Below, piece by piece: positions 13,553 to 40,000 of a stretch of 40,000 nt of DNA. The position numbers and the translations under genes were made by a program. The stretch spans positions 271,789 to 311,788 of the forward strand of contig JAXLSN010000009.1 in assembly GCA_046330595.1 (NCBI GenBank). Reading direction: 5' to 3'. The notes under the pieces are model-generated. The model did not search any database. It was not told where the DNA came from and saw only the letters and a list, made by a program, of their open reading frames with translations. The stretch's first letter is position 1; every line of letters begins with the position of its first letter. The DNA is from Nocardioidaceae bacterium (GTDB taxonomy: Bacteria > Actinomycetota > Actinomycetes > Propionibacteriales > Nocardioidaceae).

Positions 13553-13555
13553 CCG

Positions 13556-13672: not shown

Positions 13673-13680
13673 GCATGGGG

Positions 13681-14942: not shown

Positions 14943-14943
14943 C

Positions 14944-17136: not shown

Positions 17137-17179
17137 CGCTGCGGTCCCTCCTTGCGTTCGGTCCGCCCAGCGTGGCAGA

Positions 17180-17254
17180 GATTGGATCCAATCGCAACCG
17201 ATGGTCTGGCGATCTGCCAGTGAATGCGCCACACTGAGGCAAGGTTGGATCCAC
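17180..17254. promoter_or_regulatory. Two GGATCC-centred palindromic sites in the divergent E1 / VOC-GntR intergenic region (candidate GntR operator)
   Basis: GATTGGATCCAATC (17180-17193) is a perfect 14-bp palindrome. TTGGATCCAC (17245-17254) is a second site. The centres are 63 bp apart. Both are AT-containing motifs in GC-rich DNA. Confidence 0.4.
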
Positions 17255-17268
17255 ACAGGGGGTTGTTC

Positions 17269-18461: not shown

Positions 18462-18474
18462 CCGGCGTCGCCGC

Positions 18475-19797
18475 TCATCCGACGTACGACCGCGCCATGA
18501 CGGCGAGCTTGCGGCCGGTGGTCACCTCGCTCCACACCGCGAGCGCGGTGCCGTCGTCCATGGCGGCGAGCCTCGCGTGCCCGTCAGGGGTCGCCTCACG
18601 CGAGAGCCACCCGGGCGCCGACCAGGTGCCGTCGCTGGCCAGGAGCGCCGCCCGTACGCCGTCACCCAGCGCTCCCGGGCCGGCCGACCGGGTCCAGACA
18701 AGGATCGCCTGGCCGGAGGGGTCCATCGCGACGCTCCAGTCGTTGACGTACGACGCGGCGCCGGTCACGGTGACGGGTCCGCTCCATCCGTCCGACGGGT
18801 CCCACTGTGCGGCCAACACCGAGGCCGAGCCGGGGCCGGCGAAGGTCACCAGAACCCGGCCGGACGGCGCACCGGTCACCCGCACCGGGAACTCGCTGAA
18901 TGCCCGGTGCCGCCAGAGCATGCGCGGCGGGCGCCACGCCCCGTCACCCTGGGCTCGCAGCGCGGTGACCGCCCAGCGGCCGTCGGGCCGGCGGGCGTCC
19001 CAGGCGACGGTCGTGCGGTTGGCCTGGTCGACGAAGACCCCGGCGGGACCGGGGGCCGGCGGTCCGACGTCACGCAGCTGCTGGAGCACGGTCGGGTCAC
19101 CCCAGGCCGACCCACGGGGCTGCCGGACGGCCACCCACCCCACGCGCAGGCCGTCGTCGGCGGAGGTGACGACCTGCTGGGCCACGACGGCCGCGAGCCC
19201 GCCGTCTCCGATGGCCACCTGCAGCCGCTCGGCGTGGGGCAGCCTCAGCGTCGTCGACCACCCGCCGTCGAGGAAGCCCCGGGAGACCTGGCCGCGCGTG
19301 TTCCACCGCCACGCGAGCACCGCGTCGCCGGATCCGTTCACGGCCAGGTCCTCGACGCCCAGGCTGCCGGTGGCTCGTTCGGCGACGACGACCGGGTCGC
19401 CCCAAACCCCGGCCGGGCCGAGCGTCCGTCCCACGATGGCGGCCGGACCGCCGTCGGGGTGCTGGGCCCAGGCCACGAGGAGCCGGCCGCCGGGGTCATA
19501 GGCCGCGACCGCCGAGCCCGCGTCGTTGCCGATCGTGATCGCGCCGGCCCAGGTGTCGCCGGCAGGGCGGAGCGCGACGCGCACGTCGCCGCCGCGCACC
19601 CACACGACCGCTTGGTCGCCGAGCGGCGAGACCGCCGCCTCCGACGCGACCATCCCCCGGCCCGCGCGGGACAGCCCCACGGCTGGCTCCCAGCCCGCCG
19701 GCGCCACCGCCCCCGGAGCCCCCGATGCCGCCGGGACCAGCACCGCGGTCGTCACCACCGCCGCAGCGGTGAGCATGCGCGACATCATCGAGAACAT
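18475..19797 (-). CDS. Secreted hypothetical protein with ~8 Trp-containing repeats (beta-propeller-like)
   Basis: 440-aa ORF. Signal peptide MFSMMSRMLTAAAVVTTAVLVPAASGA. Recurrent blade-like motif: AVVWVRGG, LLVAWAQH, AVLAWRWN, RVGWVAVR, TTVAWDAR, VLVTFAGP, AILVWTRS, ALAVWSEV. Seven of these are followed by W-x-x-P/small motifs (VWGDPVVV, AWGDPTVL, GWSGPVTV..). Confidence 0.7.
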   Translation of the reverse strand: MFSMMSRMLTAAAVVTTAVLVPAASGAPGAVAPAGWEPAVGLSRAGRGMVASEAAVSPLGDQAVVWVRGGDVRVALRPAGDTWAGAITIGNDAGSAVAAYDPGGRLLVAWAQHPDGGPAAIVGRTLGPAGVWGDPVVVAERATGSLGVEDLAVNGSGDAVLAWRWNTRGQVSRGFLDGGWSTTLRLPHAERLQVAIGDGGLAAVVAQQVVTSADDGLRVGWVAVRQPRGSAWGDPTVLQQLRDVGPPAPGPAGVFVDQANRTTVAWDARRPDGRWAVTALRAQGDGAWRPPRMLWRHRAFSEFPVRVTGAPSGRVLVTFAGPGSASVLAAQWDPSDGWSGPVTVTGAASYVNDWSVAMDPSGQAILVWTRSAGPGALGDGVRAALLASDGTWSAPGWLSREATPDGHARLAAMDDGTALAVWSEVTTGRKLAVMARSYVG

Positions 19798-19945
19798 GGT
19801 GGCCTCCCCGTGCCGCGGCGGAGCCGCCCGGGCGGCGACCCCGCCGTGACTGCTTCTCCATGGTCGGTCGGACCTGGGCCCAGCGTGCTAGGACGATGAT
19901 CACCACGGGGGTGTTCCGTGCGGCACAGCCGCAGGATGACCGGCG

Positions 19946-20683
19946 TCAGAGCAGCCGGCCGACGGCGGTCAGGACGGCGTCACGGACCTCGTCGAGCGTG
20001 ACGCCCGGGACCGCGTCGGCGACGCAGCCGACGGTCTCGGGCCGCAGGTCGAGCCCCATCAGGGGGTACGCCGCCGCCAGCGCGGCACGAGCACGGTCGG
20101 CGCCGCGGACCATGATCACGGCGCTGAACAGGAAGCCGCCACGGGTGATCCGCTGCCCCGTCCCGACCAGCTTGGACCGACCGGAGTCGTTGACGCTGAA
20201 CTCGCCCTCGCAGTACTCCCCCGGCACCCGACCGACCCGAGCGTCGACGCCGAGCCCGACGAGCGCCTCGGCCAGCGCCTCGCCGAGCAGCGAGAACCGT
20301 TCCTGGATGTGGAGCCTCGGCTGGTCGTGACCGGACAGGAGGTGGAGCACGAGGGAGCCCTCGTCATAGACGGCCAGCCGGCCGCCGACGGGCCGGAGAT
20401 GCGGCGCGAACCCGTGTGCGGCCACCGCCTCGGCGGCGGCCGGATAACCCGCGTTGAGCCGGTCGCGTCGGCTGAACGCGGCGGTGGCCGGGGGAACGGC
20501 GACGACGAGCTCGGCGATGCTGGCCGGGGTGAGCCCCCGGGCGCGGGCGTGGGCGGCCTCGAGATCGGCGACCAGGGCCGAGGCCGCGTCACCGTCGAGG
20601 AGGTGGAGCGGGCGGTCACCCAGCGGACTGGTCACGCGGGGAGCGACCCTCGAAGCGGGGCGATCACGCCACCATCCCACCAT
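19946..20683 (-). CDS. Lipoate-protein ligase / octanoyltransferase family (LplA-like, BPL_LplA_LipB catalytic domain) protein
   Basis: 245-aa ORF. PGEYCEGEFSVNDSGRSKLVGTGQRI matches the LplA-family lysine/active-site segment. Start uncertain (ATG 20683 or GTG 20635). Confidence 0.7.
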   Translation of the reverse strand: MVGWWRDRPASRVAPRVTSPLGDRPLHLLDGDAASALVADLEAAHARARGLTPASIAELVVAVPPATAAFSRRDRLNAGYPAAAEAVAAHGFAPHLRPVGGRLAVYDEGSLVLHLLSGHDQPRLHIQERFSLLGEALAEALVGLGVDARVGRVPGEYCEGEFSVNDSGRSKLVGTGQRITRGGFLFSAVIMVRGADRARAALAAAYPLMGLDLRPETVGCVADAVPGVTLDEVRDAVLTAVGRLL

Positions 20684-20776
20684 GACGACGCCACGAGGAG
20701 CGCCGTTGGGCCCGGCTCGTCGGCGGGCCTAGACTCTGGCGCGCCCACCCAGGCGTGACCCGAGGAGCGCCCTGCG

Positions 20777-25142: not shown

Positions 25143-26663
25143 TCACAGGTCGTTGCCGGCGTAGGACTGGTTGAAGCTCTTGTTGGTGAGGGGGAAGTCC
25201 GGGACGATCGTGTCCTTCAGCGCCACGGGCAGGGCGGGCCAGTTGAAGAACGACGGGTCGACGACCTTGCAGCGCGTCACGAGCCCGTCGCGGATCTCGA
25301 CGCGGTGCACCAGCGTCCCGCGCCAGGCCTCCACGACACCGAGGCCCGCCCCCGAGCCCGCGACGGGGAGCTCGACCGGGCTGCCGACCGTGGCACCGCC
25401 CGCCGCCGAGGCGGTGACCCCCCGGCCCATGACAACGCCGGTGAGCTCGGCGATCAGATCCGCCGACTGCTGGGCCTCGCGGGCGCGCACCAGGAAGCGC
25501 GCCATGACGTCGCCGGTCGTCTCCATGACCGGTTGGAACTCCGGGCCGAGGTCGTGGAACGGGTGGTCGCGACGGGCATCGACGTCGACACCGCTGGCGC
25601 GGGCGACATAGCCGAGCGTTCCCATGGCGTGGGCTTGCTCGTGGGGCAGCACCGACGTGGCGGTGAGCCGGTCGACCACGACGTGGTTGCCGAGCGCGAT
25701 AGCGACGATCTCGGCGAGCTCAGCAGCGACCGACGCGACGAGCTCGAGGTCAGGCAACTGACGCAGCTGCGTCGAGCCGATGCCGATGGCCCCGCGCAGC
25801 AGCCGGTGGCCGGTGACCGCCCGGTGGTGTCGCAACAGCCGTTCGCGGAGCGCCTGGGCATGGGCGTTGACGATGCCATAGCCGACGTCGTTGACGATCG
25901 CCCCCAGGTCGGCCACGTGGTTGTGGAGCCGCTCCATCTCCAAGAGCAGGGCCCGCAGCGCCGTGTCGACATCTCCCACCGGCACGCCGAGAGCCTGCTC
26001 CACCGCCATGACATAGGCGAGTGAGTGGCCGACCGCGGTGTCGCCGCTGATCCGCTCGGCGAGCTCGATCCCGGCCTCGGGAGCACGGCCCTCGAAGAGC
26101 TTCTCGACCCCACGGTGGACGAACCACAGCCGGGCCTTCATCCGGACGATCGTCTCCCCGACGACAGAGAACCGGAAGTGGCCGGGCTCGATCAGCCCCG
26201 CGTGCACCGGCCCGACCGGGATCTCATAGACACCGTCGCCACCGACCTCGACGAACGGGAACGAGCCCGTGTCGGCCTCGAACGTCGGGTCGGGGGTCGC
26301 GTCACGTCGCATCGGGTAGTAGCCGCTGGGCCAGTGGCCATGGCGGACCAGGCGCCGGGCCAGCGGGTGGCCGAGCGGGGTCACGCCATAGAGGTCGCGG
26401 ACCTCGCGCTCGAACCGGCCGGCCGCATAGGAGAGGTCGGCCATCGTCGGCACACCGTCGGCGTCGTCGGGCACGGTGATGGCCAGCTCGTGGGGCTGCT
26501 CCCCTGGAACAAGGAACGTGTGGACGATCCGGACGCCGCCGCCGTCGTGGTGGCCTGCGGCCAGCGCGAGCCGGGCACCCCGGTCGAGCAGGGCACCGGC
26601 CTCGGCCCGCAGCGTCGCCGCGGTGACCTCGCGAGGCTCGGGGAGCGGCGTCGGGGCGCTCAC
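25143..26663 (-). CDS. Fused NuoC-NuoD / HycE-like large subunit of a group-4-hydrogenase-related complex, lacking the NiFe cysteine ligands
   Basis: 506 aa. NuoC-like N-terminal part (AAGRFEREVRDLYGVTPLGHP). Large-subunit core VGPVHAGLIEPGHFRF..FVHRGVEKL. The L1 position reads ERISGDTAVGHS (SGDT at 26048..26037) where CGxC is expected. The C-terminus reads KSFNQSYAGNDL where DPCxxCxxR is expected. ATGA overlap with the upstream gene. Confidence 0.9.
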   Translation of the reverse strand: MSAPTPLPEPREVTAATLRAEAGALLDRGARLALAAGHHDGGGVRIVHTFLVPGEQPHELAITVPDDADGVPTMADLSYAAGRFEREVRDLYGVTPLGHPLARRLVRHGHWPSGYYPMRRDATPDPTFEADTGSFPFVEVGGDGVYEIPVGPVHAGLIEPGHFRFSVVGETIVRMKARLWFVHRGVEKLFEGRAPEAGIELAERISGDTAVGHSLAYVMAVEQALGVPVGDVDTALRALLLEMERLHNHVADLGAIVNDVGYGIVNAHAQALRERLLRHHRAVTGHRLLRGAIGIGSTQLRQLPDLELVASVAAELAEIVAIALGNHVVVDRLTATSVLPHEQAHAMGTLGYVARASGVDVDARRDHPFHDLGPEFQPVMETTGDVMARFLVRAREAQQSADLIAELTGVVMGRGVTASAAGGATVGSPVELPVAGSGAGLGVVEAWRGTLVHRVEIRDGLVTRCKVVDPSFFNWPALPVALKDTIVPDFPLTNKSFNQSYAGNDL

Positions 26664-28102
26664 GCGGCACCTCCGAGTACGGCGACCGCGGCCGCCAGCA
26701 CGTCGTGGAGCGGCCAGACCAACGCCCCGAGGAGGGCCACCACCCCGAGCGCCACCCCGGTCACGAGCCGCTGGCCCGGCGTCGAAGGGTCCGGACCCGC
26801 GACCGCCTCGACCAGGGTCGAGTGGCCATGCCTCGTCAGCGTCATGGACAGCGTGTGACGGGCGAGGCCGGCGAACACGACCAGCAGGAGGGCCGCCGTG
26901 GCGCCGGCGACGAGCGGCAGGCCGCGCTGGAAGCCGGCGATGACGATGGCGGCCTCGGTCAGGAACAGCCCGAAGGGCGGGAAGCCCAGCAGGGCGCTCG
27001 TCCCGGCGAGCCAGGGGCGGGCGAGACTCGGGTGGGTGTCGAGCAAGGAGTGCACCCGACCGATCTCGTGGGTGCCGGTCGCTCGGAGGAGCCGTCCCGA
27101 CACGACGAAGAGACTCGCCTTGGCCAGCCCGTGGCCCAGGATGTGGAGCAGCACGGCCGCGGTCGCGAGCGGACCTCCGATGGCGGCGCCGATGGCGACG
27201 ATCCCCATGTGCTCGATGCTGGAGTAGGCCAGCAGCCGCTTATAGCTGCGCTGCGTGAGCATCAAGGCGGCGGCCGCGGCCAGCGACAGCAGCCCGGCGA
27301 CGACCAACAGCGTGCGCATCAGGTCGGGGCCGAGCACGTGGTCGCTGATCGCCTTGACCCGCAGGATCCCCGAGAAGGCGACGGACAGCAGCACGCCGGA
27401 CATCAGCCCGGAGACCTGGGCCGGTGCCTGGCTGTGGGCGTCGGGGAGCCAGCTGTGCATCGGGGCGAGCCCGGCCTTGGTGGCCAGACCGAGCGCCGTG
27501 AGCGCCAGCCCGACGCGGGCGGTGTCGACCGCGAGTGCGTTGCTGCTCGACAGCGCCGCCCAGGAGAGGGTGGCGAGGTCACCGCTGGCGGCATAGACGA
27601 GCACGAGCCCGAGGAAGGCGATGGCGACGCCGACCGAGCCGAGGACGACGTACTTCCAGGCGGCCTCGAGCGCGGCACGGCCGCCGCCATAGGCGACCAG
27701 GAAGGCGGTGGCGATCGTCGTCGCCTCGACGGCGACCCACAAGACGCCGAGGTTGTCGGCGAGTACGGCGAGCGTCATGGCCGCCAGGAAGAGGCTCATC
27801 AGCGCGGAGAACCGGCCATCTACGCGGTCGTTGGTCGCACCCCAGGTGGCGACGACCGCCACGGCGCCGACCACCGTCACCATGAACGTCGTGAGCGCGT
27901 CGACACGCAGCAGCCCGCCCGCGGCGGTGACCACGTCGGCGGATGTCGCCGGCAGCATCGCCATCGTGGCGACGCCGGCGGCGAGGACGACGGCGGCGGC
28001 CGCCGCCGGGACGTGACCGACCCAGGGATCGTGGCGACGCAGCAGCGACACCACCGCCAGCACGACGGGGATGACGAGCACGGCCCAGACCAGGAGCGTC
28101 AT
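26660..28102 (-). CDS. NuoN/NuoM-type antiporter-like membrane subunit (HyfF/HycQ-like)
   Basis: Start MTLLVWAVLV at 28102 (TGATG junction with the upstream stop). KAGLAPMHSWLPDAHSQAP and KRLLAYSSIEHMG motifs. The listed 675-aa ORF over-extends the N-terminus in a region occupied by the HyfE-like gene. Confidence 0.85.
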   Translation of the reverse strand: MTLLVWAVLVIPVVLAVVSLLRRHDPWVGHVPAAAAAVVLAAGVATMAMLPATSADVVTAAGGLLRVDALTTFMVTVVGAVAVVATWGATNDRVDGRFSALMSLFLAAMTLAVLADNLGVLWVAVEATTIATAFLVAYGGGRAALEAAWKYVVLGSVGVAIAFLGLVLVYAASGDLATLSWAALSSSNALAVDTARVGLALTALGLATKAGLAPMHSWLPDAHSQAPAQVSGLMSGVLLSVAFSGILRVKAISDHVLGPDLMRTLLVVAGLLSLAAAAALMLTQRSYKRLLAYSSIEHMGIVAIGAAIGGPLATAAVLLHILGHGLAKASLFVVSGRLLRATGTHEIGRVHSLLDTHPSLARPWLAGTSALLGFPPFGLFLTEAAIVIAGFQRGLPLVAGATAALLLVVFAGLARHTLSMTLTRHGHSTLVEAVAGPDPSTPGQRLVTGVALGVVALLGALVWPLHDVLAAAVAVLGGAA

Positions 28103-28761
28103 CAGTCCCTCAGCTCCGCCAGGTCGCTGAGGTCGGTCGTCCCGAACGTGGCCCGGATCCGCAGCGCCAAGATCACCAGGATCGCGACCACGAGCAGGAC
28201 GTCCGCCAGGACGCCGAGCTCCACCACGGCCGGCAGACCGCCGGCGGTGAGCAGCGCCGTCGCGCTGATGCCGTTGTCGACCGTCACGAACCCGACCACC
28301 TGACCCATCGCCTGCCGACGCGTGGCCAGCACCAGGAAGCCGATCAGCACGACGGCGATCCCGATCGGTACGGCGGTGCCGAGCTCGCTCCCCTGGGTCG
28401 ACTCGATGGGCCGCGTCACCAGGTAGGCGACCGTCGTGAGCAGCGCGGCCAGCAGCATGCCCGAGGTCGGGTTGACCAGGGGCGCGGTCTCCTGGTCGAC
28501 CTGGGTCCGGTCGGCGCCCCACCGGAGCAGGGCCGGGATGACGATCGCCTTGACGACGGTCAGGGTGAGTCCGACCAGCAACGGTTCGAGGCCACCCTCG
28601 TCGCTGGCGATGACCAGGGCGATACCGCCCAGGCAGGCACCCTGGATCGCCAGCAGCAGCACCGACCCCGACAGGGAGCGACGCCACAGCAGCAGCACGG
28701 CCGTGAGCAGGAGACCGCCGGTGGCGGCGGCCAGCAGCTGGGCCAGGAACGGCGAGGTCAC
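28102..28761 (-). CDS. Hydrogenase-4 component E-like / NuoK-related membrane subunit (HyfE/HycP-like)
   Basis: 219-aa polytopic ORF. GTG 28761 is preceded by a GAGGAGGAG SD. It sits between the HycD-like and HyfF-like genes, as in hyf/hyc-type clusters. Confidence 0.75.
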   Translation of the reverse strand: MTSPFLAQLLAAATGGLLLTAVLLLWRRSLSGSVLLLAIQGACLGGIALVIASDEGGLEPLLVGLTLTVVKAIVIPALLRWGADRTQVDQETAPLVNPTSGMLLAALLTTVAYLVTRPIESTQGSELGTAVPIGIAVVLIGFLVLATRRQAMGQVVGFVTVDNGISATALLTAGGLPAVVELGVLADVLLVVAILVILALRIRATFGTTDLSDLAELRD

Positions 28762-28771
28762 GGTCTCCTCC

Positions 28772-29722
28772 TCACAGGCTCAGGTAGGACGCGGTCACGG
28801 ACAGGAAGGCGAGCACGAACGACGCGGCGAGCAGCTCGGGCACCCGGAAGAGCCGCACCTTGGCGAGGAAGACCTCGGCCACGGCCAGCAGGCCGGCGAC
28901 CACGGTCACCTTGAGCGCGAGGACGGCGGCCCCCACGACGAAGGCACCGGCGCCGGCAGCGGAGGCGACGCCCCATGGTGCGGCGAGGTTGGCCACGAGG
29001 CCGACGAGGCCGACCAGCCGCAGCCAGGACGACAGCTCGACCCAGCCCAGGTCGCGGCCGGACACCTCGAGCACCATCGCCTCGTGCACCATCGTCAGCT
29101 CCAGATGGGTGCTCGGGTTGTCGACCGGCAGCCGCCCGGTCTCGGCGACGACAACGACGGCGAGGGCGACCAGGGCGAGCGCGCTGGCGGGGCTGATGAT
29201 CGTCCCGGGCTCGTCGATGCGAGCCTGCATGATCGTCGAGAGCGTCGAGGCGCCGACCGGGATCGAGAGGGCATAGACGGCGACGAGGACGGTCGGCTCG
29301 ACGAGAGCGGCGATCATCATGTGGCGGCTCGAGCCCATCCCCCCGAACGCCGACCCTGCGTCGAGACCGAGCAGGGCGATGGCCACCGAGCCCAGCAGCA
29401 GGACCGACACGACGACGAACAGGTCGTCGGGGACCGCGGGCAGGCTGACGGTGCTGACCAACGGGAGCAGCGCGATGAGCAGGACGCCGGCAGCCATCAG
29501 GATCGGCGGCATCGCGGCACCGAACAGGGTGCCGGCCGAGGTCAACGGCGCCTTGCGCGCCAGCTTGCGCAGGTCGCGGTAGGGCTGCCAGACACCGGCG
29601 CCGGCGCGCCCCTCCAGCCGGGACCGGATCTGGCGCATCACGCCGATCACGAACGGCGCCATGGCCGTGACGACCAGGGTCTGGAGGGCGATGGCCAGCA
29701 ACGCGGCGGTCGTCGGGTTCAT
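28772..29722 (-). CDS. NuoH/HycD-like membrane subunit
   Basis: Start MNPTTAALLAIALQTLVV at 29722 (ATGA overlap with the upstream stop at 29719). 316 aa. Internal motifs RLEGRAGAGVWQPYRDLRKL and VAETGRLPVDNPSTHLELTM are typical of HycD/NuoH. The listed 577-aa ORF has a spurious Arg/Pro-rich N-terminus. Confidence 0.85.
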   Translation of the reverse strand: MNPTTAALLAIALQTLVVTAMAPFVIGVMRQIRSRLEGRAGAGVWQPYRDLRKLARKAPLTSAGTLFGAAMPPILMAAGVLLIALLPLVSTVSLPAVPDDLFVVVSVLLLGSVAIALLGLDAGSAFGGMGSSRHMMIAALVEPTVLVAVYALSIPVGASTLSTIMQARIDEPGTIISPASALALVALAVVVVAETGRLPVDNPSTHLELTMVHEAMVLEVSGRDLGWVELSSWLRLVGLVGLVANLAAPWGVASAAGAGAFVVGAAVLALKVTVVAGLLAVAEVFLAKVRLFRVPELLAASFVLAFLSVTASYLSL

Positions 29723-31710
29723 CGCAGCACCCCGACGAGGACGGCGACGAGGGCCGCGAAGGAGAACCCGACGTAGCGGTGGATGCTGCCGTTCTGGACC
29801 CGCCGGGCGAGGTCGCCCAGCGCCTTGAGCAGGCGGACGACGGGCCGATAGAGCCGGTTCTCGACGACGTCGCTGACCCGCTGGGTGAACGACATCGCCT
29901 CGATGACATAGGCGGACTCGCCGGCCCGGGTGACCTGGAGGTCGCGGGTCGGTGAGAGCGCGTCGCCGAAGACGCGCACGAGCGGCTCGGCGTACGACGT
30001 CGCGGTGTACTGCATCCGCGGGCTGGTGCGCACGCCGCCGCAGCCCCACCCGAGGTCGACGTGGACCCGGGGGACCCGCATCGCGAGGAGGACGACCACG
30101 ACCACGATCGGCGCGGACAGGACGATGCCGAGCAGCGCGAGGGCGATGGGGTCGAGGGAGGCGTCGACGGTCGGGAGGGACAGCCCGGCGACTCCGTGGG
30201 AGGCCAGCGCTCCGGGGATGATGCGGTCGACGACGCCGGCGGTGGCGCCGGGGGCGACGCCCAGGCCGATGACCGCGGCCGCCATCGCGAGCAGCGCCAG
30301 TCGCATCGATGCCGGCCCCTCGTGGGCGAGCTGGGCGCCGACGCTGCGCGGCCGGGCGAGTGCGGCGATCCCGAACGCCTTGGTGAAGGTGAGCAGCGCC
30401 AGCCCGGCGGTGAGCGCCACGACGCCCATCACCGCCGGCAGCAGCGCCGTGGTGAGCCGGTCGGTGCGAGCGTCGGCGTGGATGAGCGACTGGAGCAGCA
30501 CCCACTCGGCGATGAACCCGCCGGTGACGGGCAGCGCGGCCGCGCCGAGGGCGCCGACGCCGAAGGCGATCGTGGTGACCGGCATCTGCCGCGCCAGCCC
30601 GCCGAGCCGGTCGAGGTCACGCTCACCGGTGGCGTGGAGGATCGAGCCGGCCGCGAGGAACAGCACCGCCTTGAACGCCGCGTGACTGATCGTGAGCAAC
30701 AGCGCCGCCGACATCGCGGTCGCGGCGACGCCGCCCGCGGTGTCGCGGGTCAGCTGGGCGAGACCCACCGCGGCCAGGATCAGCCCGACGTTCTCGGTCG
30801 TGGAGTAGGCCAGCAGCCGCTTGAGGTCGGAGGCCACGGCGGCGTGGAGGATGCCATAGACGGCGCTCGGGAGGGCCAGCGCGAGCAGGAGGAGCGCCCA
30901 CCAGGTGGGGCCGTCGGGCAGCAGCGTGGTGGTGGTGAGCACGATGCCGAAGACGCCCATCTTGACCATCACGGCGCTCATCAGCGCGGACACGTGGGAG
31001 GGCGCCTCGGGGTGGGCCCGAGGGAGCCACACATGCAGCGGGACGACCCCGGCCTTGGCGCCGAAGCCCAGCACCAGCAACACGAAGGCGACGCTGGCTC
31101 CGGTGCCGCTGGCGGGCGCCTCGGCCATCGCCGCGAACGACGTGTCGCCGGCCCGCTCGGTGAGGATCCCGAGTCCGGCCGCGACGAACAGGAAGCTGAG
31201 GTGGGTCATGACGGCATACCAGAGCCCGGCGCGGCGCACCGTGGGCCGGAGCCGGTGCTCGGCGAGCACCAGGACGGTGGACCCGACGGCCATCACCTCC
31301 CAGGCGAGCAGGAACGTGATCGCGTCGGCCGCCACCGGGACCAGCTGGAGCCCGAGCACGAACGCGGCGTACGCCGACCAGGCGGTGCACGACGCCGCCG
31401 CCCCGTGGGCATAGCCGATGCCATAGACCGACGCGACGGTGGCGACGACGCCGGCGAGCAGGGTGAACAGCCCGCCCAACGGCGTGCCGGCCACGCCCAG
31501 GGCGAGCCCGGGCAGGGCGGTGTCGACGCGGAGTGCGTCACCAGCACCGGTCAGGGCTACGGCGCCGGTGACGCACCCCGCGACCCCCAGGCCCGCCGTG
31601 ACGAGACCGGCCGCGAGGTTGCGGCGCCGGTCTCCTGCCAGCACGGCGGCGAGGACTGCGAGGACAGCGAGGGCGAGCTGGGCCCACAGGGCCCCCTGGA
31701 ACGTGGTCAT
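29719..31710 (-). CDS. NuoL-type antiporter-like membrane subunit (HyfB/HycC-like)
   Basis: Start MTTFQGALWAQLAL at 31710 (ATGA overlap with the NuoB-like stop at 31707). KAGVVPLHVWLPRAHPEAPSHVSALMS and KRLLAYSTTENVG. About 663 aa with a long C-terminal extension. Confidence 0.85.
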   Translation of the reverse strand: MTTFQGALWAQLALAVLAVLAAVLAGDRRRNLAAGLVTAGLGVAGCVTGAVALTGAGDALRVDTALPGLALGVAGTPLGGLFTLLAGVVATVASVYGIGYAHGAAASCTAWSAYAAFVLGLQLVPVAADAITFLLAWEVMAVGSTVLVLAEHRLRPTVRRAGLWYAVMTHLSFLFVAAGLGILTERAGDTSFAAMAEAPASGTGASVAFVLLVLGFGAKAGVVPLHVWLPRAHPEAPSHVSALMSAVMVKMGVFGIVLTTTTLLPDGPTWWALLLLALALPSAVYGILHAAVASDLKRLLAYSTTENVGLILAAVGLAQLTRDTAGGVAATAMSAALLLTISHAAFKAVLFLAAGSILHATGERDLDRLGGLARQMPVTTIAFGVGALGAAALPVTGGFIAEWVLLQSLIHADARTDRLTTALLPAVMGVVALTAGLALLTFTKAFGIAALARPRSVGAQLAHEGPASMRLALLAMAAAVIGLGVAPGATAGVVDRIIPGALASHGVAGLSLPTVDASLDPIALALLGIVLSAPIVVVVVLLAMRVPRVHVDLGWGCGGVRTSPRMQYTATSYAEPLVRVFGDALSPTRDLQVTRAGESAYVIEAMSFTQRVSDVVENRLYRPVVRLLKALGDLARRVQNGSIHRYVGFSFAALVAVLVGVLR

Positions 31711-32192
31711 CGGCCGGTCACGGTCCTGAGCGCGGCGATGATGGCGTCCGGTTCGGGAGGACAACCGGGCACCCGAAGGTCGACGTCGACGACGTCCTCG
31801 GCAGCGCCACGCACCCCGGTGCCGCCGTGGAAGAGGCCGCAGTCGACGGCACAGTCACCGACCGCGACGACGCGCCGCGGCTGGGGCGTGGCCTCGACGG
31901 TGCGGCGCAGCGGCTCGGCCATGTTGTGGGTGACGACGCCCGTCACGAGCACCACGTCGGCGTGGCGGGGTGAGGCGACGAGGCGGGCGCCGTAGCGCTC
32001 GGCGTCATAGACGGGGCCGAAGCAGGCGCCGACCTCGATCTCGCACCCGTTGCAGGAGCCGGCATCGACGTGGCGGACCTGCACGCTGCCACCGAAGACG
32101 GCCGCGTCGGGCGAGGCGTCGGGGCGGTCGGGCGCGGGGTCCGCCAGGCGTCCGAGCCGCAGGATGCGCCGGGCCAGCCGGCCGGGGTTCAT
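31707..32192 (-). CDS. NuoB / hydrogenase small-subunit-like [4Fe-4S] protein
   Basis: 161 aa. The four cluster cysteines are retained: GSCNGCE, VGDCAVDCG and VPGCPP. ATGA overlap with the ArsR stop. Confidence 0.9.
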   Translation of the reverse strand: MNPGRLARRILRLGRLADPAPDRPDASPDAAVFGGSVQVRHVDAGSCNGCEIEVGACFGPVYDAERYGARLVASPRHADVVLVTGVVTHNMAEPLRRTVEATPQPRRVVAVGDCAVDCGLFHGGTGVRGAAEDVVDVDLRVPGCPPEPDAIIAALRTVTGR

Positions 32193-32536
32193 CGGGCGCC
32201 ACCGGCGGGCGCGGAGGCGGGCTCGTGGCCCTCGTCGGCGAGCTCGCGCAACAGCCGGCGCGCGGCCGCGAGCATCTCGACGACCTCGGCGCTCACCAGG
32301 CTATAGACGACCTGCCCGCCGGTGCGCTGCTGCCGCACGAGGCCGGTACGACGCAGCACGGCGAGGTGCTGGGACAGCCCCGCCTGCTCGACCTCGATGT
32401 GACCGAGCAGCTCGTGCACGGCGTGGGGGCGCTCGCAGAGCAGCTCGAGCACGCGGATGCGGACGGGGTGGCCGAGCGACTTGAAGAGCTCGGCCTTGCG
32501 CTCGTAGATGGGCGCCCCACTCACTGACATTCGCAC
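32189..32536 (-). CDS. ArsR/SmtB-family transcriptional regulator, first gene of the hydrogenase-like operon
   Basis: LFKSLGHPVRIRVLELLCERPHAVHELLGHIEVEQAGLSQHLAVLRRTGLV is a canonical ArsR wHTH. Start at GTG 32536 or ATG 32530. Confidence 0.9.
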   Translation of the reverse strand: MRMSVSGAPIYERKAELFKSLGHPVRIRVLELLCERPHAVHELLGHIEVEQAGLSQHLAVLRRTGLVRQQRTGGQVVYSLVSAEVVEMLAAARRLLRELADEGHEPASAPAGGAR

Positions 32537-32554
32537 TTGCGAAGATTCGCATAT
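32530..32554. promoter_or_regulatory. Candidate ArsR operator: TTCGCA-CT-TGCGAA palindrome plus an extra TTCGCA half-site
   Basis: TTCGCACTTGCGAA at 32530-32543 overlaps the ArsR start codon(s). TTCGCATAT at 32546-32554 repeats the half-site. Confidence 0.35.
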
Positions 32555-32655
32555 CGTTGTTGTCCGGTCAATGTGAGGCCGGTCGTCCTGTCGCTCCCGT
32601 CACATCGCGCGATGACTTGGGTGCGTTCCGCGGCCATCGGCCTAGACTCGACGGC

Positions 32656-34110
32656 GTGTCGGGGTCGGCGCTCACAGCACCCCACGTGCGCGACGTGGTC
32701 GCGCGGTCGTGGCGCCGATCGGCCGCCCAGGGGGCGTCGCGGACCACCGGTGACCGGCTCCCGCGCGTGCTCGACACCGCGACCCTCGACGCCACCCGCG
32801 ACGCCAACCCGGTGGCGGGCCTGATGCCGGTGGTGCGCACGCTCCTCGACGGCGGCACCAAGGCCGCCGGCGCGGCGTTCGCCGTCTCCGACGCCACCGG
32901 CACCCTGCTCTGGCTGGGGGGTGACCGGAGGTCACTGCGCGGGTTGGAGCGCATCAACTTCGTCGAAGGAGCGGACTGGTCGGAGCGCTCCGTCGGCACC
33001 AACGCCCCCGGGACCGCGCTCGCGACCGGCCACCCGGTCCAGGTCATCGGCGCCGAGCACTACCACGAGGCGGTGCGCACGTGGTCGTGCGTCGCCGCCC
33101 CGGTGCGCGACCCGGATGCGGGTGGCATCGCCGCCACCGTGGACATCACCGGACACGACGACGTCAGCAGCCCGTTGGCACTGTCGCTCGCCACCACGAC
33201 GGCCCACACCCTCGAGAGCGAGCTCCGGCACTCGTGGACCATCCGCGACGCGCGCACCCGGGCCCGCTTCAAGCAGGCCCACGGTCGCGCCAACCCCTCG
33301 CTCGCCCTGGTCTCCCCCGCCGGCCGGGTGCTCGTCGCCCCGGAGGGCAGCGGCCTGGGCGAACGGATCCGGGTGCCGCAGGGCATGCTGGGACACGACG
33401 TCCTGGTCAACCAGCGGCGGCTGCCGCTCGAGCCCTTCGGCGACGAGGGCTACGGCGTGCTCCACCTACGTGGCGGGGACACGGTGTCCGGGCCGGGCCT
33501 GACAGCGCCGTTGCGCCTGCTCGATGCCGAGCCCGACCTCCGGGTCCTCGGCGTCGACCGGGCCGCCGTCATGGTCGACGGGCAGCCGCTCCGGCTCTCC
33601 CTGCGCCACAGCGAGATCCTGGTGCTGTTGCTCGACGCCACCGAAGGGCTCTCGGCCCACGAGCTCGCGGTCGAGCTGTGTGAGGACGAGCGCTCGTCGG
33701 TCGCGATCCGCGCCGAGGTCGGCCGGCTCCGCACCCGGGTCGGCGCCGGCCTGCTGTCGTCCCATCCCTATGGGCTGACCAGTCCCCTGGTCACCGACGT
33801 CGAGATCGTGCGCGCCGCGCTCGCCCGGGGCGACGTCGCCCTCGCCCTCGACCACTACGCCGGCCCGCTGCTGCCGCACTCGAGCGCGCCGGGCATCGTC
33901 GAGCGCCGCGAGGAGCTTGCCCAGCAGATGCGCGGCGCCGTCGTCGGGTCGGCCGACGGGGTGGTGCTGCGACGGTGGGTCGACCGACCGTGCGGCCGCG
34001 ACGACGTCCACGCCTGGCACGCCCTCGCACACGCCCTGCCACCCGGGTCGGCACAGCGGGCGGCCGCCGACCAGCGCGCCCGCGGCCTCGACGCCGAGCT
34101 GGGCCGCTAG
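32656..34110 (+). CDS. Transcriptional regulator: AcoR-type N-terminal GAF domain fused to a SARP-like winged-helix + BTAD module
   Basis: [68 protein letters not shown] matches the AcoR/GAF sensory pattern. [45 protein letters not shown] matches an OmpR-type wHTH. There is a helical BTAD-like tail. The GTG 32656 start lies 7 nt after a TAGACT -10-like box; the listed 32557 is possible. Confidence 0.7.
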
Positions 34111-35946: not shown

Positions 35947-36960
35947 ATGAAGGCAGCCGTCGTCAAGGACTTCAGCAGCCCGCTGGAGGTCACCGAGCTC
36001 CCCACCCCCGAGCCCGGCCCCGGACAGATCCTGGTCCGGATGGAGGCCTCCGGCCTGTGCCACACCGACATCCACGCCGCTCGCGGCGACTGGCCGGTCA
36101 AGCCGACCCCACCGTTCATCCCCGGCCACGAAGGCATCGGCCTGGTCGAGGCGGTCGGCCCCGGCGTCACCGAGCGAGCCGTCGGAGACCGGGTATCGAT
36201 CGCGTGGCTGGGCTCGGCCTGCGGTCACTGTCGCTACTGCATCTCCGGCTGGGAGACGCTGTGCGAGCAGCAGACCAACAGCGGCTATGGCGTCAACGGC
36301 GCCTGGGCCGAGTACGCCGTCGCGTCGGCGGCGTACTCGGTGGTCGTGCCCTCCAACGTGCTGCCGTTCGAGGCTGCGCCGCTCACCTGCGCGGGCGTCA
36401 CGACCTACAAGGCCGTCAAGGTCGCCGGCGTCCAGCCCGCCGAGCGGGTCGCGGTGTTCGGCATCGGCGGACTCGGCCACCTGGCCCTGCAATATGCCCG
36501 CATCGCCGGCGGCTTCGTGACCGCCGTGGACGTCGAGGAACCCAAGCTCGACCTCGCGCTCAGCCTCGGCGCCGACCACGTCGTCAACGCGCGGCACCAG
36601 GATCCGGTGGCGCGGATCAAGGACGAGATGGGCGGCGTCGATGTCGCGATCGTCCTCGCCGCGAGCTCGCAGGTCTTCGACCAGGCGCTGCGCAGCCTGC
36701 GCCGCGGTGGTCGCCTCGTCTGTGTGGCGCTCCCGGCGGACGGCACGCTCAACGTGCCGATCTTCGAGACCGTCCTCGGCGGCCTGTCGGTCATCGGGTC
36801 CATCGTGGGCACCCGCAACGACCTCACCGAGGTCTTCGACCTGCACGCCGCCGGCCGCACCCAGGTGATCGCCCAGCCGCGCAGCCTCGACGACGTCAAC
36901 GACTGCATCGAGGAGGTGCTGTCCGGCCAGGTGCCGGCCCGACTGGTGTTCGACTTCTGA
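35947..36960 (+). CDS. Zn-dependent alcohol dehydrogenase, AdhP/AdhA-type
   Basis: 337 aa. GLCHTDIH, GHEGIGLVEAVG, structural-Zn CGHCRYCISGWETLC, GIGGLGH Rossmann. GAGAAGG SD upstream. Confidence 0.95.
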   Translation: MKAAVVKDFSSPLEVTELPTPEPGPGQILVRMEASGLCHTDIHAARGDWPVKPTPPFIPGHEGIGLVEAVGPGVTERAVGDRVSIAWLGSACGHCRYCISGWETLCEQQTNSGYGVNGAWAEYAVASAAYSVVVPSNVLPFEAAPLTCAGVTTYKAVKVAGVQPAERVAVFGIGGLGHLALQYARIAGGFVTAVDVEEPKLDLALSLGADHVVNARHQDPVARIKDEMGGVDVAIVLAASSQVFDQALRSLRRGGRLVCVALPADGTLNVPIFETVLGGLSVIGSIVGTRNDLTEVFDLHAAGRTQVIAQPRSLDDVNDCIEEVLSGQVPARLVFDF

Positions 36961-37805: not shown

Positions 37806-38465
37806 TCAGCGCAGCGGCACCGGCACCCGCTCGGCGAGGTCGGCCGCGGAGATGCCGAAGGTCTCGCGGACAACCGCCCCGTCGGGGCCGAGGTCGATGA
37901 CAGCGTGGTCGGTATAGAGGCGGTCGACGCAGCCGACGCCGGTGAGCGGATAGCTGCAGGCGTCGACCAGCTTGGACGAGCCGTCCTTGGCGAACAGCGT
38001 CATCATCACGAAGATCTGCTTGGCCCCGATCGCGAGGTCCATGGCGCCGCCGACGGCCGGGATCGCGTCGGGGGCGCCGGTGTGCCAGTTGGCGAGGTCG
38101 CCGGTCGCCGAGACCTGGAAGGCGCCGAGCACGCACACGTCGAGGTGACCGCCACGCATCATCGCGAACGAGTCGGCGTGGTGGAAGTACGACGCCCCGG
38201 GCAGCTCGGTGACCGGGGACTTGCCGGCGTTGGTCAGGTCGGGGTCGATCTGGTCGCCCACGGCTGCCGGTCCCATGCCGAGCATGCCGTTCTCGGTGTG
38301 GAGGACGACACCGGAGTCAGCGGCCAGGTGGTCGGCCACGAGGGTCGGCTGCCCGATGCCGAGATTGACATAGGAGTCGCGCGGGATGTCGCGAGCGATC
38401 AGTGCCGCGATCTCGTCACGGCCGAGCGGACCACGGTCGAGGTGCTCCACGAGCGCGGCGTTCAC
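37806..38465 (-). CDS. 3-oxoacid CoA-transferase subunit B
   Basis: GTG 38465 overlaps the subunit A stop (GTGA). VNAALVEHLDRGPLGRDEIAALIARDIPRDSYVNLGIGQP..LHTENGMLGMG (catalytic Glu motif)..ATGDLANW..VGGAMDL. 219 aa. The listed 533-aa ORF N-terminus is spurious. Confidence 0.9.
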   Translation of the reverse strand: MNAALVEHLDRGPLGRDEIAALIARDIPRDSYVNLGIGQPTLVADHLAADSGVVLHTENGMLGMGPAAVGDQIDPDLTNAGKSPVTELPGASYFHHADSFAMMRGGHLDVCVLGAFQVSATGDLANWHTGAPDAIPAVGGAMDLAIGAKQIFVMMTLFAKDGSSKLVDACSYPLTGVGCVDRLYTDHAVIDLGPDGAVVRETFGISAADLAERVPVPLR

Positions 38466-39142
38466 GCAGCACCCCCGGTCGCCGATGAGACCGCAACGAC
38501 GCGGTCGACATAGATCCCGGGGGTGACGACCACCTCGGGATCGATCCCACCGGCCTCGACGACCTCGCCGACCTGGACGACGGTCGTGGTGGCCGCGGTC
38601 GCCATGACCGGCCCGAAGTTGCGGGCGGTCTTGCGATAGACCAGGTTGCCCCGACGGTCGGCGACGTGGGCCTTGATGAGCGCCACGTCGCCCTTGATCG
38701 GGTGTTCCAACACATAGGTCCGGCCGTCGATCACCCGCGTCTCCTTGCCTTCGGCCAGCGGCGTCCCCACGCCGGTGGGGCAGAAGAACGCCCCGATCCC
38801 GGCACCGGCGGCGCGCAGTCGCTCGGCGAGGTTGCCCTGGGGCACCACCTCGAGCTCGATGCGCCCGGCGAGGTAGAGCCCGTCGAAGACCCACGAGTCC
38901 GCCTGCCGCGGGAAGGAGCACACGACCTTGCGGACCCGGCCCTTCGCCAGCAGCGCGGCCAGACCGGTGTCGCCGTTGCCGGCGTTGTTGGACACGACCG
39001 TGAGGTCGGTCGCCCCCTGTCGGATGAGGGCGTCGATGAGGTCGACCGGCATCCCGGCCATGCCGAAGCCGCCGACGAGGACGGTCGAGCCGTCCTCGAT
39101 CCCGGACACCGCCTCGTCGACGGAGGCGCAAATGGTCGTCAC
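38462..39142 (-). CDS. 3-oxoacid CoA-transferase subunit A
   Basis: 226 aa. DGSTVLVGGFGMAGMPVDLIDALI..TVVSNNAG..FPRQADS..PQGNLAERLRAAGAGIGAFFCPTGVGT. ATGA overlap with the thiolase stop. Confidence 0.9.
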   Translation of the reverse strand: MTTICASVDEAVSGIEDGSTVLVGGFGMAGMPVDLIDALIRQGATDLTVVSNNAGNGDTGLAALLAKGRVRKVVCSFPRQADSWVFDGLYLAGRIELEVVPQGNLAERLRAAGAGIGAFFCPTGVGTPLAEGKETRVIDGRTYVLEHPIKGDVALIKAHVADRRGNLVYRKTARNFGPVMATAATTTVVQVGEVVEAGGIDPEVVVTPGIYVDRVVAVSSATGGAA

Positions 39143-40000
39143 GGCCGGTCACCCGACACGTTCTCGACGACCATCGCAAGGCCCTGGCCGACACCGATGC
39201 AGATCGCGGCCACGCCCCAGCGCTCCCCCGACTCGCGCAGGCGGGCGACCAGCGTGCCGAGGATCCGGCCGCCGGAGGCACCGAGCGGGTGGCCGATCGC
39301 GATCGCGCCGCCACGGGCGTTGACGATCTCGGGATCGACCCCCCACGCGTCGATGCAGGCGAGCGACTGGACGGCGAACGCCTCGTTGAGCTCGACCGCA
39401 CCGACATCGGCCCAGCCGATGCCGGCGCGGGCTAGCGCCCGGTCCGCCGCCTCCACCGGAGCGATGCCGAACCGCTGCGGCTCGAGCGCCGCCGCGCCAC
39501 GACCGGCGATCCGGGCGAGCGGCGCGAGCCCGATCAGGTCCGACGCCGACTCCGTCCCGAGCAGCACGGCGGACGCGCCGTCGTTGAGCGGCGAGGCGTT
39601 GCCGGCCGTGATCGTCCCGTCGGGCCGGAACGACGGCTTCAGCCCGGCCAGCGCCTCGGGAGTCGAGCCGTCGCGGATGCCCTCGTCGCGGGCCAGGTCG
39701 ACGCCCGGCACCGCCACAACAAGATCGTCATAGAAGCCCTCGGCCCACGCGGCGGCCGAGCGCGCATGCGACTGCGCGGCGAACGCGTCCTGCCGCTCGC
39801 GCGAGATGGCGAGCTCGTCGGCCAGCTGCTCGTTGGACTCCCCCAGCGAGACCGTCCACTCCCGCGGCATCCGGGCATTCACCAGTCGCCACCCGAGCGT
39901 CGTGGACACCGCGGTCACGTCCCCGGCCGGGAAACCCCGAGCCGGCTTGGGCAGCACCCACGGCGCCCGCGTCATCGACTCGACCCCGCCGGCGAGCGCC
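39139..40000 (-). CDS. Acetyl-CoA C-acyl/acetyltransferase (thiolase II, PcaF/FadA-like); 5' end beyond the window end
   Basis: C-terminal thiolase signatures NEAFAVQ, NARGGAIAIGHPLGASGGR and AAICIGVGQGLAM. The frame stays open upstream of the listed Met to the window edge (..LAGGVESMTRAPW). Confidence 0.9.
   Translation of the reverse strand, partial: ALAGGVESMTRAPWVLPKPARGFPAGDVTAVSTTLGWRLVNARMPREWTVSLGESNEQLADELAISRERQDAFAAQSHARSAAAWAEGFYDDLVVAVPGVDLARDEGIRDGSTPEALAGLKPSFRPDGTITAGNASPLNDGASAVLLGTESASDLIGLAPLARIAGRGAAALEPQRFGIAPVEAADRALARAGIGWADVGAVELNEAFAVQSLACIDAWGVDPEIVNARGGAIAIGHPLGASGGRILGTLVARLRESGERWGVAAICIGVGQGLAMVVENVSGDRP

Follow-up and report, generated by a model that had tools for sequence, protein, structure and literature searches.

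An ArsR-headed operon for a six-subunit Ehr/Hyq-type membrane complex in a Nocardioidaceae bacterium

A seven-gene operon on the minus strand (25143-32536) was analyzed in a 40-kb stretch of contig JAXLSN010000009.1 from a Nocardioidaceae bacterium; this whole stretch, with 70-75% G+C, is called the window. The operon encodes an ArsR regulator and a six-subunit membrane complex of the Ehr/Hyq type (Ehr, energy-converting hydrogenase related). Judging by its sequences, this complex descends from a Hyf-type (group 4) membrane hydrogenase and has been stripped down. The former Ni-Fe site has been rebuilt, its side chains now being hard, polar and charged, a case of remodeling and not decay, as the replacement motifs are nearly invariant across phyla, the genes are intact and the G+C content at third codon positions (GC3) is at least 0.90. 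As to function, the complex may be a reversible ion-translocating oxidoreductase that would connect the menaquinone pool with a cytoplasmic low-potential couple through a single iron-sulfur cluster and be used under oxygen limitation, a proposal that we place just short of an even chance.

The locus is an ordinary actinobacterial representative of the widespread, already named Ehr/Hyq/Rv0082-87 family, one more example in a widely reported group and with no special handle beyond hundreds of other genomes. The family matters for its presence in Mycobacterium tuberculosis, where its control is linked to hypoxia, and in nitrifiers, methanotrophs, rhizobia, soil actinobacteria and bacteria of the Candidate Phyla Radiation (CPR), and Ehr/Hyq is one of the few complex I relatives without an accepted substrate. 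The comparison described here provides a diagnostic two-motif signature, which shows the former Ni-Fe site to have been rebuilt and not abandoned, and joins Hyq, the only member with functional genetics, in one family with the mycobacterial and 'Ehr' complexes. In addition, the range of cluster numbers offers natural variants for asking whether the core function needs electron transfer.

Operon architecture and subunit kinship

The seven open reading frames (ORFs) are all intact and uninterrupted and are read in this order:

32536-32189, minus strand: arsR, 115 aa (alternative start ATG at 32530)
32192-31707, minus strand: small subunit, HycG/HyfI/MbhJ/NuoB-like, 161 aa, one [4Fe-4S] site
31710-29719, minus strand: HyfB-like antiporter-type membrane subunit, 663 aa
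29722-28772, minus strand: HycD/HyfC/NuoH-like coupling subunit, 316 aa
28761-28102, minus strand: HyfE-like (NuoK/J-related) membrane subunit, 219 aa
28102-26660, minus strand: HyfF-like antiporter-type membrane subunit, 480 aa
26663-25143, minus strand: fused NuoC-NuoD / HycE-HyfG-like large subunit, 506 aa, without Ni-Fe ligands

The original prediction of seven chained minus-strand genes was borne out in coordinates, intactness and overlaps, with one 10-nt gap besides the five overlaps. In gene order, the junctions are three ATGA overlaps (4 nt each), the 10-nt gap, TGATG (1 nt) and GTGA (4 nt), and a Shine-Dalgarno sequence, GGAGGAG, lies in the gap before hyfE. GC3 is 0.90-0.95 in each of the seven genes. 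Besides these genes, 38 ORFs were scanned across the whole window. As had been predicted, no hyp gene, formate dehydrogenase, separate HycF/NuoI or other ferredoxin subunit, or endopeptidase was found among them with Pfam; no further nuo-like gene was present in the window either, the structural genes being six only.

Pfam searches gave HTH_5 for ArsR (1.5e-10), Oxidored_q6 for the small subunit (3.5e-29), Proton_antipo_M for the HyfB-like (7.5e-53) and HyfF-like (9.7e-47) subunits, NADHdh for the HycD-like subunit (6.3e-27), and Complex1_30kDa, NiFeSe_Hases and Complex1_49kDa for the large subunit. The HyfE-like protein matched NCBIfam HyfE (9.6e-26) as well as Pfam Oxidored_q2, the latter under the gathering score (2e-5). 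In the NCBIfam scan, none of the structural subunits reached an equivalog cut-off: the HyfB-like protein scored 512 bits (3e-153) against hydrogenase 4 subunit B, with a cut-off of 667, and the large subunit 153 bits against NuoD, with a cut-off of 360. The curated Hyf, Hyc and Nuo families therefore do not include the structural subunits.

For each subunit, the best E. coli relative is a Hyf or Hyc protein, ahead of Nuo. The subunit identities and the kinship with complex I and group 4 hydrogenases given in the original prediction held, while its NuoL, NuoN and NuoH names fit less well, every subunit being nearer to Hyf/Hyc. With E. coli hydrogenase 4 (Hyf, formate hydrogenlyase 2) and hydrogenase 3 (Hyc, formate hydrogenlyase 1; 7Z0S), the locus shares the hydrogenase-type CxxC of the small subunit and the EPGHFR loop of the large subunit, but it lacks their Ni-Fe cysteines, the C-terminal extension removed by a protease, HycF/HyfH, HycB/HyfA, HyfD, formate dehydrogenase and hyp genes. 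With complex I and photosynthetic NDH-1, it has in common a homologous core (NuoB, C, D and H, K-like and L/M/N-like subunits) and conserved Glu/Lys proton-transfer residues, whereas it has no NuoA, J, I, E, F or G and resembles them less than it does Hyf/Hyc. The Pyrococcus MBS/MBX complexes (6U8Y) derive from group 4, gave up Ni-Fe chemistry and are still energy-conserving, and in them catalysis at or close to the proximal cluster has a precedent. MBS is far more distant (MbsL 1e-15 versus HycE 8e-52), and its 13 subunits include Mrp-type ones as well as a NuoI-like ferredoxin acceptor. Mrp antiporters have only two MrpA/D-like (PF00361) subunits in common with the locus, and MrpB, C, E, F and G are absent here. 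No Ehr- or Hyq-type complex was present in the PDB copy searched.

Relatives were collected with the peptide patterns IEPGHFRF and VYEIPVGP[VI] in a one-genome-per-species collection, where they match at least 600 stretches. Genomic context was surveyed at 81 related loci (numbered with the prefix L) by all-against-all clustering of flanking ORFs within 6 kb of the cassette.

The residues expected for coupling are retained in the membrane subunits. The HyfB-like subunit is 34% identical to E. coli HyfB, and its E138, K219, H343, K347 and E402 are invariant in 61/61 homologues. The HyfF-like subunit, 41% identical to E. coli HyfF, retains E126 and K209 in 72/72 homologues and E383 in 68 of them; its central Lys is replaced by S/N, the same as in HyfF. 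For the HycD-like subunit, the best PDB match is HycD (7z0s_D, 2.3e-27), with 31% identity to HycD/HyfC and 41% to the Rhizobium Hyq protein. Its conserved charged residues, in the loop between transmembrane helices 5 and 6, are R39, E142, E194, R197, D201, E208, E214 and E219, and H206 is a family-specific change at a position occupied by Glu in HycD and NuoH. In the HyfE-like subunit, E181, D187 and D210 are conserved and correspond to HyfE E178, D184 and D207. The machinery for conformationally coupled ion translocation thus looks intact from these residues, and the complex would be expected to translocate ions.

The regulator is an ArsR/SmtB-family protein of the Rv0081 type (NCBIfam HTH_metalloreg, 78 bits, over its cut-off), with Rv0081 as its best PDB match (6jmi, 1.1e-23; next match 4.6e-11). 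An arsR gene is present at 38 of the 81 loci, and at 29 of them it lies directly upstream on the same strand. A candidate autorepression operator was recognized by its symmetry:

32538-32551, no strand: candidate ArsR operator, perfect palindrome TGCGAA-TC-TTCGCA, directly upstream of the arsR start in an AT-richer stretch

The palindrome reads TGCGAATCTTCGCA, and the near-identical sequence ATGCGAATCTGCGCATGTGCG occurs upstream of arsR in the closest relative, L001. Rv0081, according to its report (bioRxiv 10.1101/465575), autorepresses through an inverted repeat and has neither metal sites nor cysteines. Scanning for sigma-70 promoters gave no match, as expected at 72% GC, and the sole 'terminator' match of the same scan was the palindrome upstream of arsR.

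The large and small subunits

In the large-subunit alignments, made with HMMER and MAFFT, the Ni-Fe ligands C241, C244, C531 and C534 of HycE align to S206, T209, S500 and G503, which supports the earlier claim that this subunit cannot ligate Ni-Fe. The four cysteines are absent in all 81 relatives as well. Two motifs stand in place of the hydrogenase ones:

26025-26057, minus strand: motif ERISGDTAVGH (residues 203-213), in place of the hydrogenase L1 motif RxCGxCxxxH
25146-25184, minus strand: C-terminal motif NKSFNQSYAGNDL-COOH (residues 494-506), in place of DPCxxCxxR

Within the first motif, D208 aligns to HycE I243. At the C-terminus, D505 and L506, with which the window protein stops, stand opposite HycE D536 and R537. 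R537 is also what we take to be the last residue of mature HycE after cleavage by HycI; since the large subunit ends opposite this residue with no extension, no protease would be needed.

ERISGDTA[VI]GH and NKSFNQSYAGNDL are essentially invariant in 28 close homologues (62-72% identity). Across the 81 loci, from at least eight phyla, the forms ER[IV]SGD[TS]xxxH and NKS[FL]xxSY[AS]G[NHT]D[LR]-COOH are nearly invariant, and every complete large subunit terminates ...G[NHTSC]D[LRMV]. Bearers of the motifs include Actinomycetota, Chloroflexota, Rokubacteria/Methylomirabilota, Nitrospirota, Acidobacteriota, Methylococcales, Thaumarchaeota, Methanosarcinales and CPR bacteria. The family-invariant residues that differ from HycE/HyfG are S206, D208, D259, N494, K495, S500 and G503, while hydrogenase-type elements are retained in the E159-P-G-H-F-R loop, R204 and H213. 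In place of the four Ni-Fe cysteines there is a strictly conserved polar pocket made up of S206, D208, T209, D259, N494, K495, S500, Y501 and the C-terminal carboxylate. D259 corresponds to Nqo4 D139; it was considered as a complex I-specific feature and rejected, since MbhL also has Asp there. Overall, the large subunit is 33% identical to HycE/HyfG, 25% to E. coli NuoCD and 37% to Rhizobium HyqG, and a protein of a Nocardioidaceae metagenome-assembled genome matches it at 100%. Its best PDB sequence match is HycE (7z0s_E, 8e-52), which is also the best fold match (TM-score 0.76) of the AlphaFold2 monomer, a model with a predicted local distance difference test score (pLDDT) of 79 and a predicted template modeling score (pTM) of 0.84.

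The small subunit gave MbhJ (7e-34) and HycG (1e-31) as best PDB matches, and it is 43-45% identical to E. coli HycG/HyfI, 36% to NuoB and 57% to Rhizobium HyqI. Two of its features were located:

31761-32054, minus strand: four cluster-ligand codons, C47 and C50 (hydrogenase-type CxxC), C114 and C144, from the alignment
32130-32192, minus strand: N-terminal 21 residues MNPGRLARRILRLGRLADPAP, probable vestige of the HycF/HyfH (NuoI-type) N-terminal helix

The four cysteines align with HycG C48/C51/C115/C145 and NuoB C63/C64/C129/C158, the CxxC standing where the complex I small subunit has a tandem CC, and they are retained in 63-68 of 70 family members. Two further cysteines are present, C57 (32022-32024) and C118 (31839-31841); the latter, within GDCAVDCG, is common to 33 of the 70 relatives, with Gly in the remainder.

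The original prediction had listed a HycF/NuoI-type subunit as missing. This is right insofar as the window holds no separate gene, but relatives carry HycF fused to the small subunit and most keep its N-terminal helix. Many small-subunit N-termini of the family resemble that of E. coli HycF/HyfH (L052 VFRIIKKSLKTGVVTGRYPQ versus HycF MFTFIKKVIKTGTATSSYPLEP), and the window N-terminus aligns to HycF MFTFIKKVIKTGTATSSYPLEP by way of intermediates. A profile was built solely from bona fide HycF-type N-termini, with the threshold set at 1% of 1,200 shuffles. Twenty-four of 60 non-fused family small subunits scored over it (best real score 35.8 bits, best shuffle 7.1), and E. coli HycG, HyfI and NuoB did not score. 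The window segment gave 1.0 bit, its nearest relative L001 7.4 and other actinobacteria 9-12. Because the window's own segment scores only 1.0 bit, its assignment as a HycF vestige is transitive, and it is best described as probable.

In Vicinamibacteria (L053, L060, L063), the small subunit consists of a HycF-like N-terminal segment, two CxxCxxCxxxCP motifs (Pfam Fer4 x2) and Oxidored_q6. One degenerate cluster motif is left in the fused small subunits of L072, Acidobacteriaceae (L071, L074) and Thaumarchaeota (L078, L081). The fused ORFs and, for comparison, two examples from the ligand-less clade described below lie at these positions of their loci:

L053, 11531-12388: fused small subunit
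L060, 2004-2855: fused small subunit
L063, ending at 12039: fused small subunit
L072, 3793-4683: fused small subunit
L071, 11307-12125: fused small subunit
L074, 11254-12054: fused small subunit
L078, 3253-4083: fused small subunit
L081, 11359-12168: fused small subunit
L064, 4373-4753: small subunit without cluster ligands
L065, 4404-4784: small subunit without cluster ligands

Relatives with the fused Fer4 domain are basal, and most other family members keep just the HycF-like N-terminal helix. By this comparison, the fused small subunits are intermediates between Hyf-type complexes and the six-subunit form of the window, and the absence of HycF/NuoI is read as a deletion within the lineage. 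A monophyletic clade formed by L062, L064 (Saccharibacteria), L065 (Daviesbacteria), L068, L073 and L077 has the cluster cysteines replaced by T/S/D, C/E, D/G and D, with PGDPP for PGCPP; SGD[ST], SYSGNDL and the antiporter Glu/Lys residues are retained. Their complexes are probably free of iron-sulfur clusters altogether. The family thus ranges from two extra clusters through one to none, as in the window, and on to no cluster ligands, a range for which no description was found in the literature searched.

Relatives and distribution

The cassette was complete at 60 of the 81 loci, with the order small-HyfB-HycD-HyfE-HyfF-large at 49 and HyfB-HycD-HyfE-HyfF-large-small at 11; the rest are interrupted by contig ends. 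Recurrence of the six genes in one order is far beyond chance. The synteny survey called for in the original prediction, which had asked after a missing electron-input module, found ArsR, with its antisense ORFs, as the only gene family conserved beside the cassettes. In a neighbor-joining tree with NuoCD as outgroup, the SGD-type large subunits, HyqG among them, all group in one clade next to HycE/HyfG; the tree holds few references outside the family and does not settle its sister group among the hydrogenase subgroups. The window locus has the features of Ehr/Hyq members, namely the six-subunit cassette, a CxxC-less large subunit with the signature and a four-Cys small subunit.

The gene order had been likened to that of M. 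tuberculosis Rv0081-Rv0087, and the published list for rv0081-rv0087 (ArsR, small subunit, HyfB-like, HycD, HycP (HyfE-like), HycQ (HyfF-like), HycE; PMC6901956) agrees with it, as does the best match of ArsR to Rv0081. Control of rv0082-87 by the hypoxia-linked Rv0081 is stated in two reports (bioRxiv 10.1101/465575, PMC6901956). The comparison ran through Rv0081 (PDB) and M. persicum, M. kansasii and M. marinum in place of the Rv0082-87 sequences. The same gene order and motifs occur in M. persicum, Mycolicibacter and others (L013, L015, L018, L024, L025), and the mycobacterial large subunits are 55-58% identical to that of the window. Those of M. marinum, M. kansasii and M. gordonae, named 'formate hydrogenase HycE', are family members. 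Unlike in M. tuberculosis, the large-subunit gene of the window is followed not by an Rv0088-like gene but by a convergent one, and the flanks are unrelated.

The label Ehr has been used for Cys-less group-4-like complexes in papers on Margulisbacteria, comammox Nitrospira, ammonia-oxidizing archaea and CPR bacteria. Its suggested application to the window complex fits, since the Nitrospira, ammonia-oxidizing archaeal and CPR loci so called fall in the same clade. The loci from Nitrospira, Thaumarchaeota and CPR in our sample share the motifs and cassette of the window. They differ in the order, mostly L-H-E-N-CD-B, in the ferredoxin domain fused to some small subunits and in the CPR-type clade without cluster ligands. 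Geobacter Ehr was likened by description, having a group-4-like large subunit without CxxC.

The statement that a substrate has been demonstrated for no such complex leaves out the Hyq complex of Azorhizobium caulinodans, for which there is deletion-mutant evidence on H2. Its hyqRBCEFGI operon for an 'endo-hydrogenase' encodes six structural subunits, including a HyqG of 504 residues lacking both CxxC motifs, and is expressed in a NifA-dependent manner (PMC2650096, PMC3357923). Without hyq, a very high microaerobic H2 output fell by about 80% and diazotrophic growth slowed, and the deletion mutants gave evidence that H2 is both recycled and evolved in a hyq-dependent manner; a reversible H2:quinone oxidoreductase was put forward by the authors, who conceded that its catalytic site was unknown (PMC2650096, PMC3357923). 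HyqI has four cysteines for one [4Fe-4S] cluster (Sprecher et al.).

The hyq operon of R. johnstonii 3841 plasmid pRL11 was recovered by tblastn with all six cassette subunits. Its HyqG carries GRTSGDSTVAY and the C-terminal CNKSFNCSYSGHDL, and the protein ends ...LCNKSFNCSYSGHDL. Hyq complexes thus have the same six subunits, a HyqG of about 504 aa with SGD[ST] and a ...NKSFNxSYSG[NH]DL C-terminus, and 29-57% identity to the window proteins, which are closer to Rhizobium Hyq than to E. coli Hyf. They differ in the order B-C-E-F-G-I, with the small subunit last, and in having an Xre-type helix-turn-helix regulator under NifA where the window has ArsR. Counted back from its C-terminus, HyqG also carries additional conserved cysteines at -13 and -7, positions taken by T and Q in the window protein. 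The Hyq host uses ubiquinone, whereas actinobacteria use menaquinone. In both the window (38465-39999, minus strand) and the pRL11 locus (L085, 12711-15319), 3-oxoacid coenzyme A (CoA)-transferase and thiolase genes lie a few kb from the operon; this is probably a coincidence, the family not being conserved across the 81 loci.

Cassettes were also found on Rhodococcus plasmids and on rhizobial, Azospirillum, Burkholderia and Cupriavidus replicons. On linear plasmids, a 58%-identical six-gene cassette is present in L086 (Rhodococcus sp. ZPP plasmid pRZP3, 2990-10278) and in a second match, H2. The Rhodococcus plasmid cassettes adjoin an IS110 transposase and three integrase genes and have no ArsR ahead, a context that suggests horizontal movement of the cassette. 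It is consistent with the horizontal acquisition of rv0082-87 reported for M. tuberculosis (PMC3087520). Two complete tandem cassettes occur in a Nitrospirota metagenome-assembled genome (L076, 4907-12013 and 12313-19748), and an extra HyfB-like gene at L037, L053 and L063 brings the structural genes there to seven.

Proposed function, its rivals and the neighboring genes

In the proposed oxidoreductase, menaquinone would be bound at the interface of the HycD-like, small and large subunits, and the single [4Fe-4S] cluster would pass electrons between it and the cytoplasmic low-potential couple. When the charge at cluster and pocket alters, the effect would travel along the conserved Glu/Lys residues that run through the four membrane subunits. 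A shortage of oxygen or reductive stress would turn the operon on, as in M. tuberculosis and Azorhizobium, and here oxygen limitation would act by releasing the ArsR repressor. A soluble ferredoxin-type carrier might dock on the face vacated by the HycF ferredoxin domain; this partner is favored because of the ferredoxin-domain ancestry, and even so we regard it as somewhat unlikely. The alternative couple, H+/H2 at the pocket as claimed for Hyq, is considered because of the Hyq genetics only and seems unlikely. Quinone use, the partner, the direction of electron flow and the ion are parts that we infer, set upon the observed gene content, intactness, ligands, coupling residues, family membership and lack of a linked partner.

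Several results weigh against this oxidoreductase. The window scan gave neither Ni-Fe ligands nor hyp genes to back H2 chemistry. The quinone ligands of complex I are absent as well: Nqo4 His38/NuoCD H224 is replaced by I158 and Tyr87/Y273 by G207, both family-invariant. No electron-input module, ferredoxin, flavodoxin or other carrier gene is conserved within 6 kb of the 81 cassettes. Pocket and antiporter residues persist in the clade that has no cluster ligands, so the core function may not need electron transfer. In the AlphaFold2 model, pLDDT is below 50 at the pocket segments, residues 133-175 and 474-506. These two segments, with the EPGHFR loop and the C-terminal motif, are the most conserved of the large subunit, and presumably they would be ordered only against the small and HycD-like subunits.

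The complex could instead be a true unconventional hydrogenase of the Hyq type, that is, a reversible H2:menaquinone oxidoreductase with a non-Ni-Fe center in the cysteine-free pocket, evolving H2 from an over-reduced quinone pool with the help of the proton-motive force, or recycling H2. The loss of about 80% of H2 evolution on hyq deletion in A. caulinodans, reported by authors who note that HyqG is CxxC-less, speaks for it (PMC3357923, PMC2650096), as do the SGD[ST] and ...SYSGHDL signature that Rhizobium HyqG shares with the window and a pocket under strong purifying selection that retains EPGHFR (E159), R204, H213 and a C-terminus like that of mature HycE. However, the physiology was obtained with whole cells by one laboratory, and no Hyq paper beyond the three from that laboratory was found. 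All four metal-binding cysteines are gone, hyp and protease genes are not in the window, and in the hydrogenase literature Cys-less Ehr counts as incapable of reacting with H2. Moreover, the same pocket is found in the subclade that has lost the cluster ligands. We consider this explanation improbable, though not far-fetched. A related idea, that Ser206, Asp208, Thr209, Asp259, Asn494, Lys495, Ser500, Tyr501 and the C-terminal carboxylate make up an unrecognized catalytic or cofactor site, is a long shot. If it were true, the Ehr/Hyq complexes, among them those of the window and Rv0082-87, would make up a new enzyme class, oxygen-compatible and energy-coupled, either non-Ni-Fe hydrogenases, as the Hyq genetics suggests, or enzymes for another small molecule.

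A role without redox chemistry stays under consideration because quinone ligands and a linked carrier gene are lacking and the cluster-less clade keeps its pocket. The complex would then be an Mrp-like cation/proton translocator or a conformational machine driven by the proton-motive force, with the arm and pocket as an ion-loading or regulatory cap and the cluster as a structural element or redox sensor. Iron-sulfur sites are lost stepwise along the family while antiporter residues and pocket stay invariant, no redox partner gene is conserved at the 81 loci, and members are found in CPR bacteria, reportedly organisms without respiratory chains. In addition, D208, D259, K495, N494 and the Ser/Thr residues are charged groups or hard O/N donors typical of ion or water sites. 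Such a role is nevertheless distinctly unlikely, with the four cluster cysteines strictly retained in the window's own clade and most others, MrpB/C/E/F/G-type subunits absent, a ferredoxin-type input domain still present in basal members, and hyq and rv0082-87 phenotypes and regulation that indicate redox physiology. The annotation of mycobacterial homologues as formate hydrogenlyase has in its favor the database name 'formate hydrogenase HycE', the E. coli formate hydrogenlyase subunits as best sequence and fold matches, and the greater abundance of Geobacter Ehr subunits on formate. It was rejected and is barely conceivable, failing on defining features: the Ni-Fe ligands are lacking, the NCBIfam equivalog cut-offs are missed widely, and the HycB/HycF wire, formate dehydrogenase, hyp and hycI are absent both from the window and from the conserved neighborhood of the 81 loci. 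A functionless, decaying remnant of a hydrogenase operon might account for the lost catalytic cysteines and accessory subunits, but the seven genes are intact and translationally coupled with a strong codon signal, the substituted positions are nearly invariant across phyla and the cassette is found in at least 600 species genomes; this conservation pattern refutes decay and leaves it practically no chance.

The other ORFs of the window encode amidohydrolases, an ATP-binding cassette sugar transporter, glycerol kinase, flavin adenine dinucleotide oxidoreductases, CoA-transferase, thiolase, and aldehyde and alcohol dehydrogenases. A 2-oxoacid (acetoin-type) dehydrogenase cluster occupies 13389-20728, and a divergent ORF lies next to the operon:

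13389-15152, minus strand: E2 of the 2-oxoacid dehydrogenase cluster
14947-17802, minus strand: fused E1 alpha-beta protein, 952 aa
18478-19887, minus strand: 470-aa ORF, no family match
19949-20728, minus strand: lipoate-protein ligase-like gene
32557-34107, plus strand: divergent 517-aa ORF, no Pfam match, N-terminal part similar to the DhaR sensor region (NCBIfam 2.6e-17)

Some calls there are uncertain because glyoxalase and GntR ORFs on the plus strand (17224-18458) overlap that of E1. The 517-aa DhaR-like ORF precedes genes for an aldehyde dehydrogenase (about 34.3-35.8 kb) and a Zn-alcohol dehydrogenase (35947-36960). It was considered as a partner of the complex and rejected, as it sits with these dehydrogenase genes and is not conserved at other loci; it is probably the regulator of the aldehyde and alcohol dehydrogenase genes.

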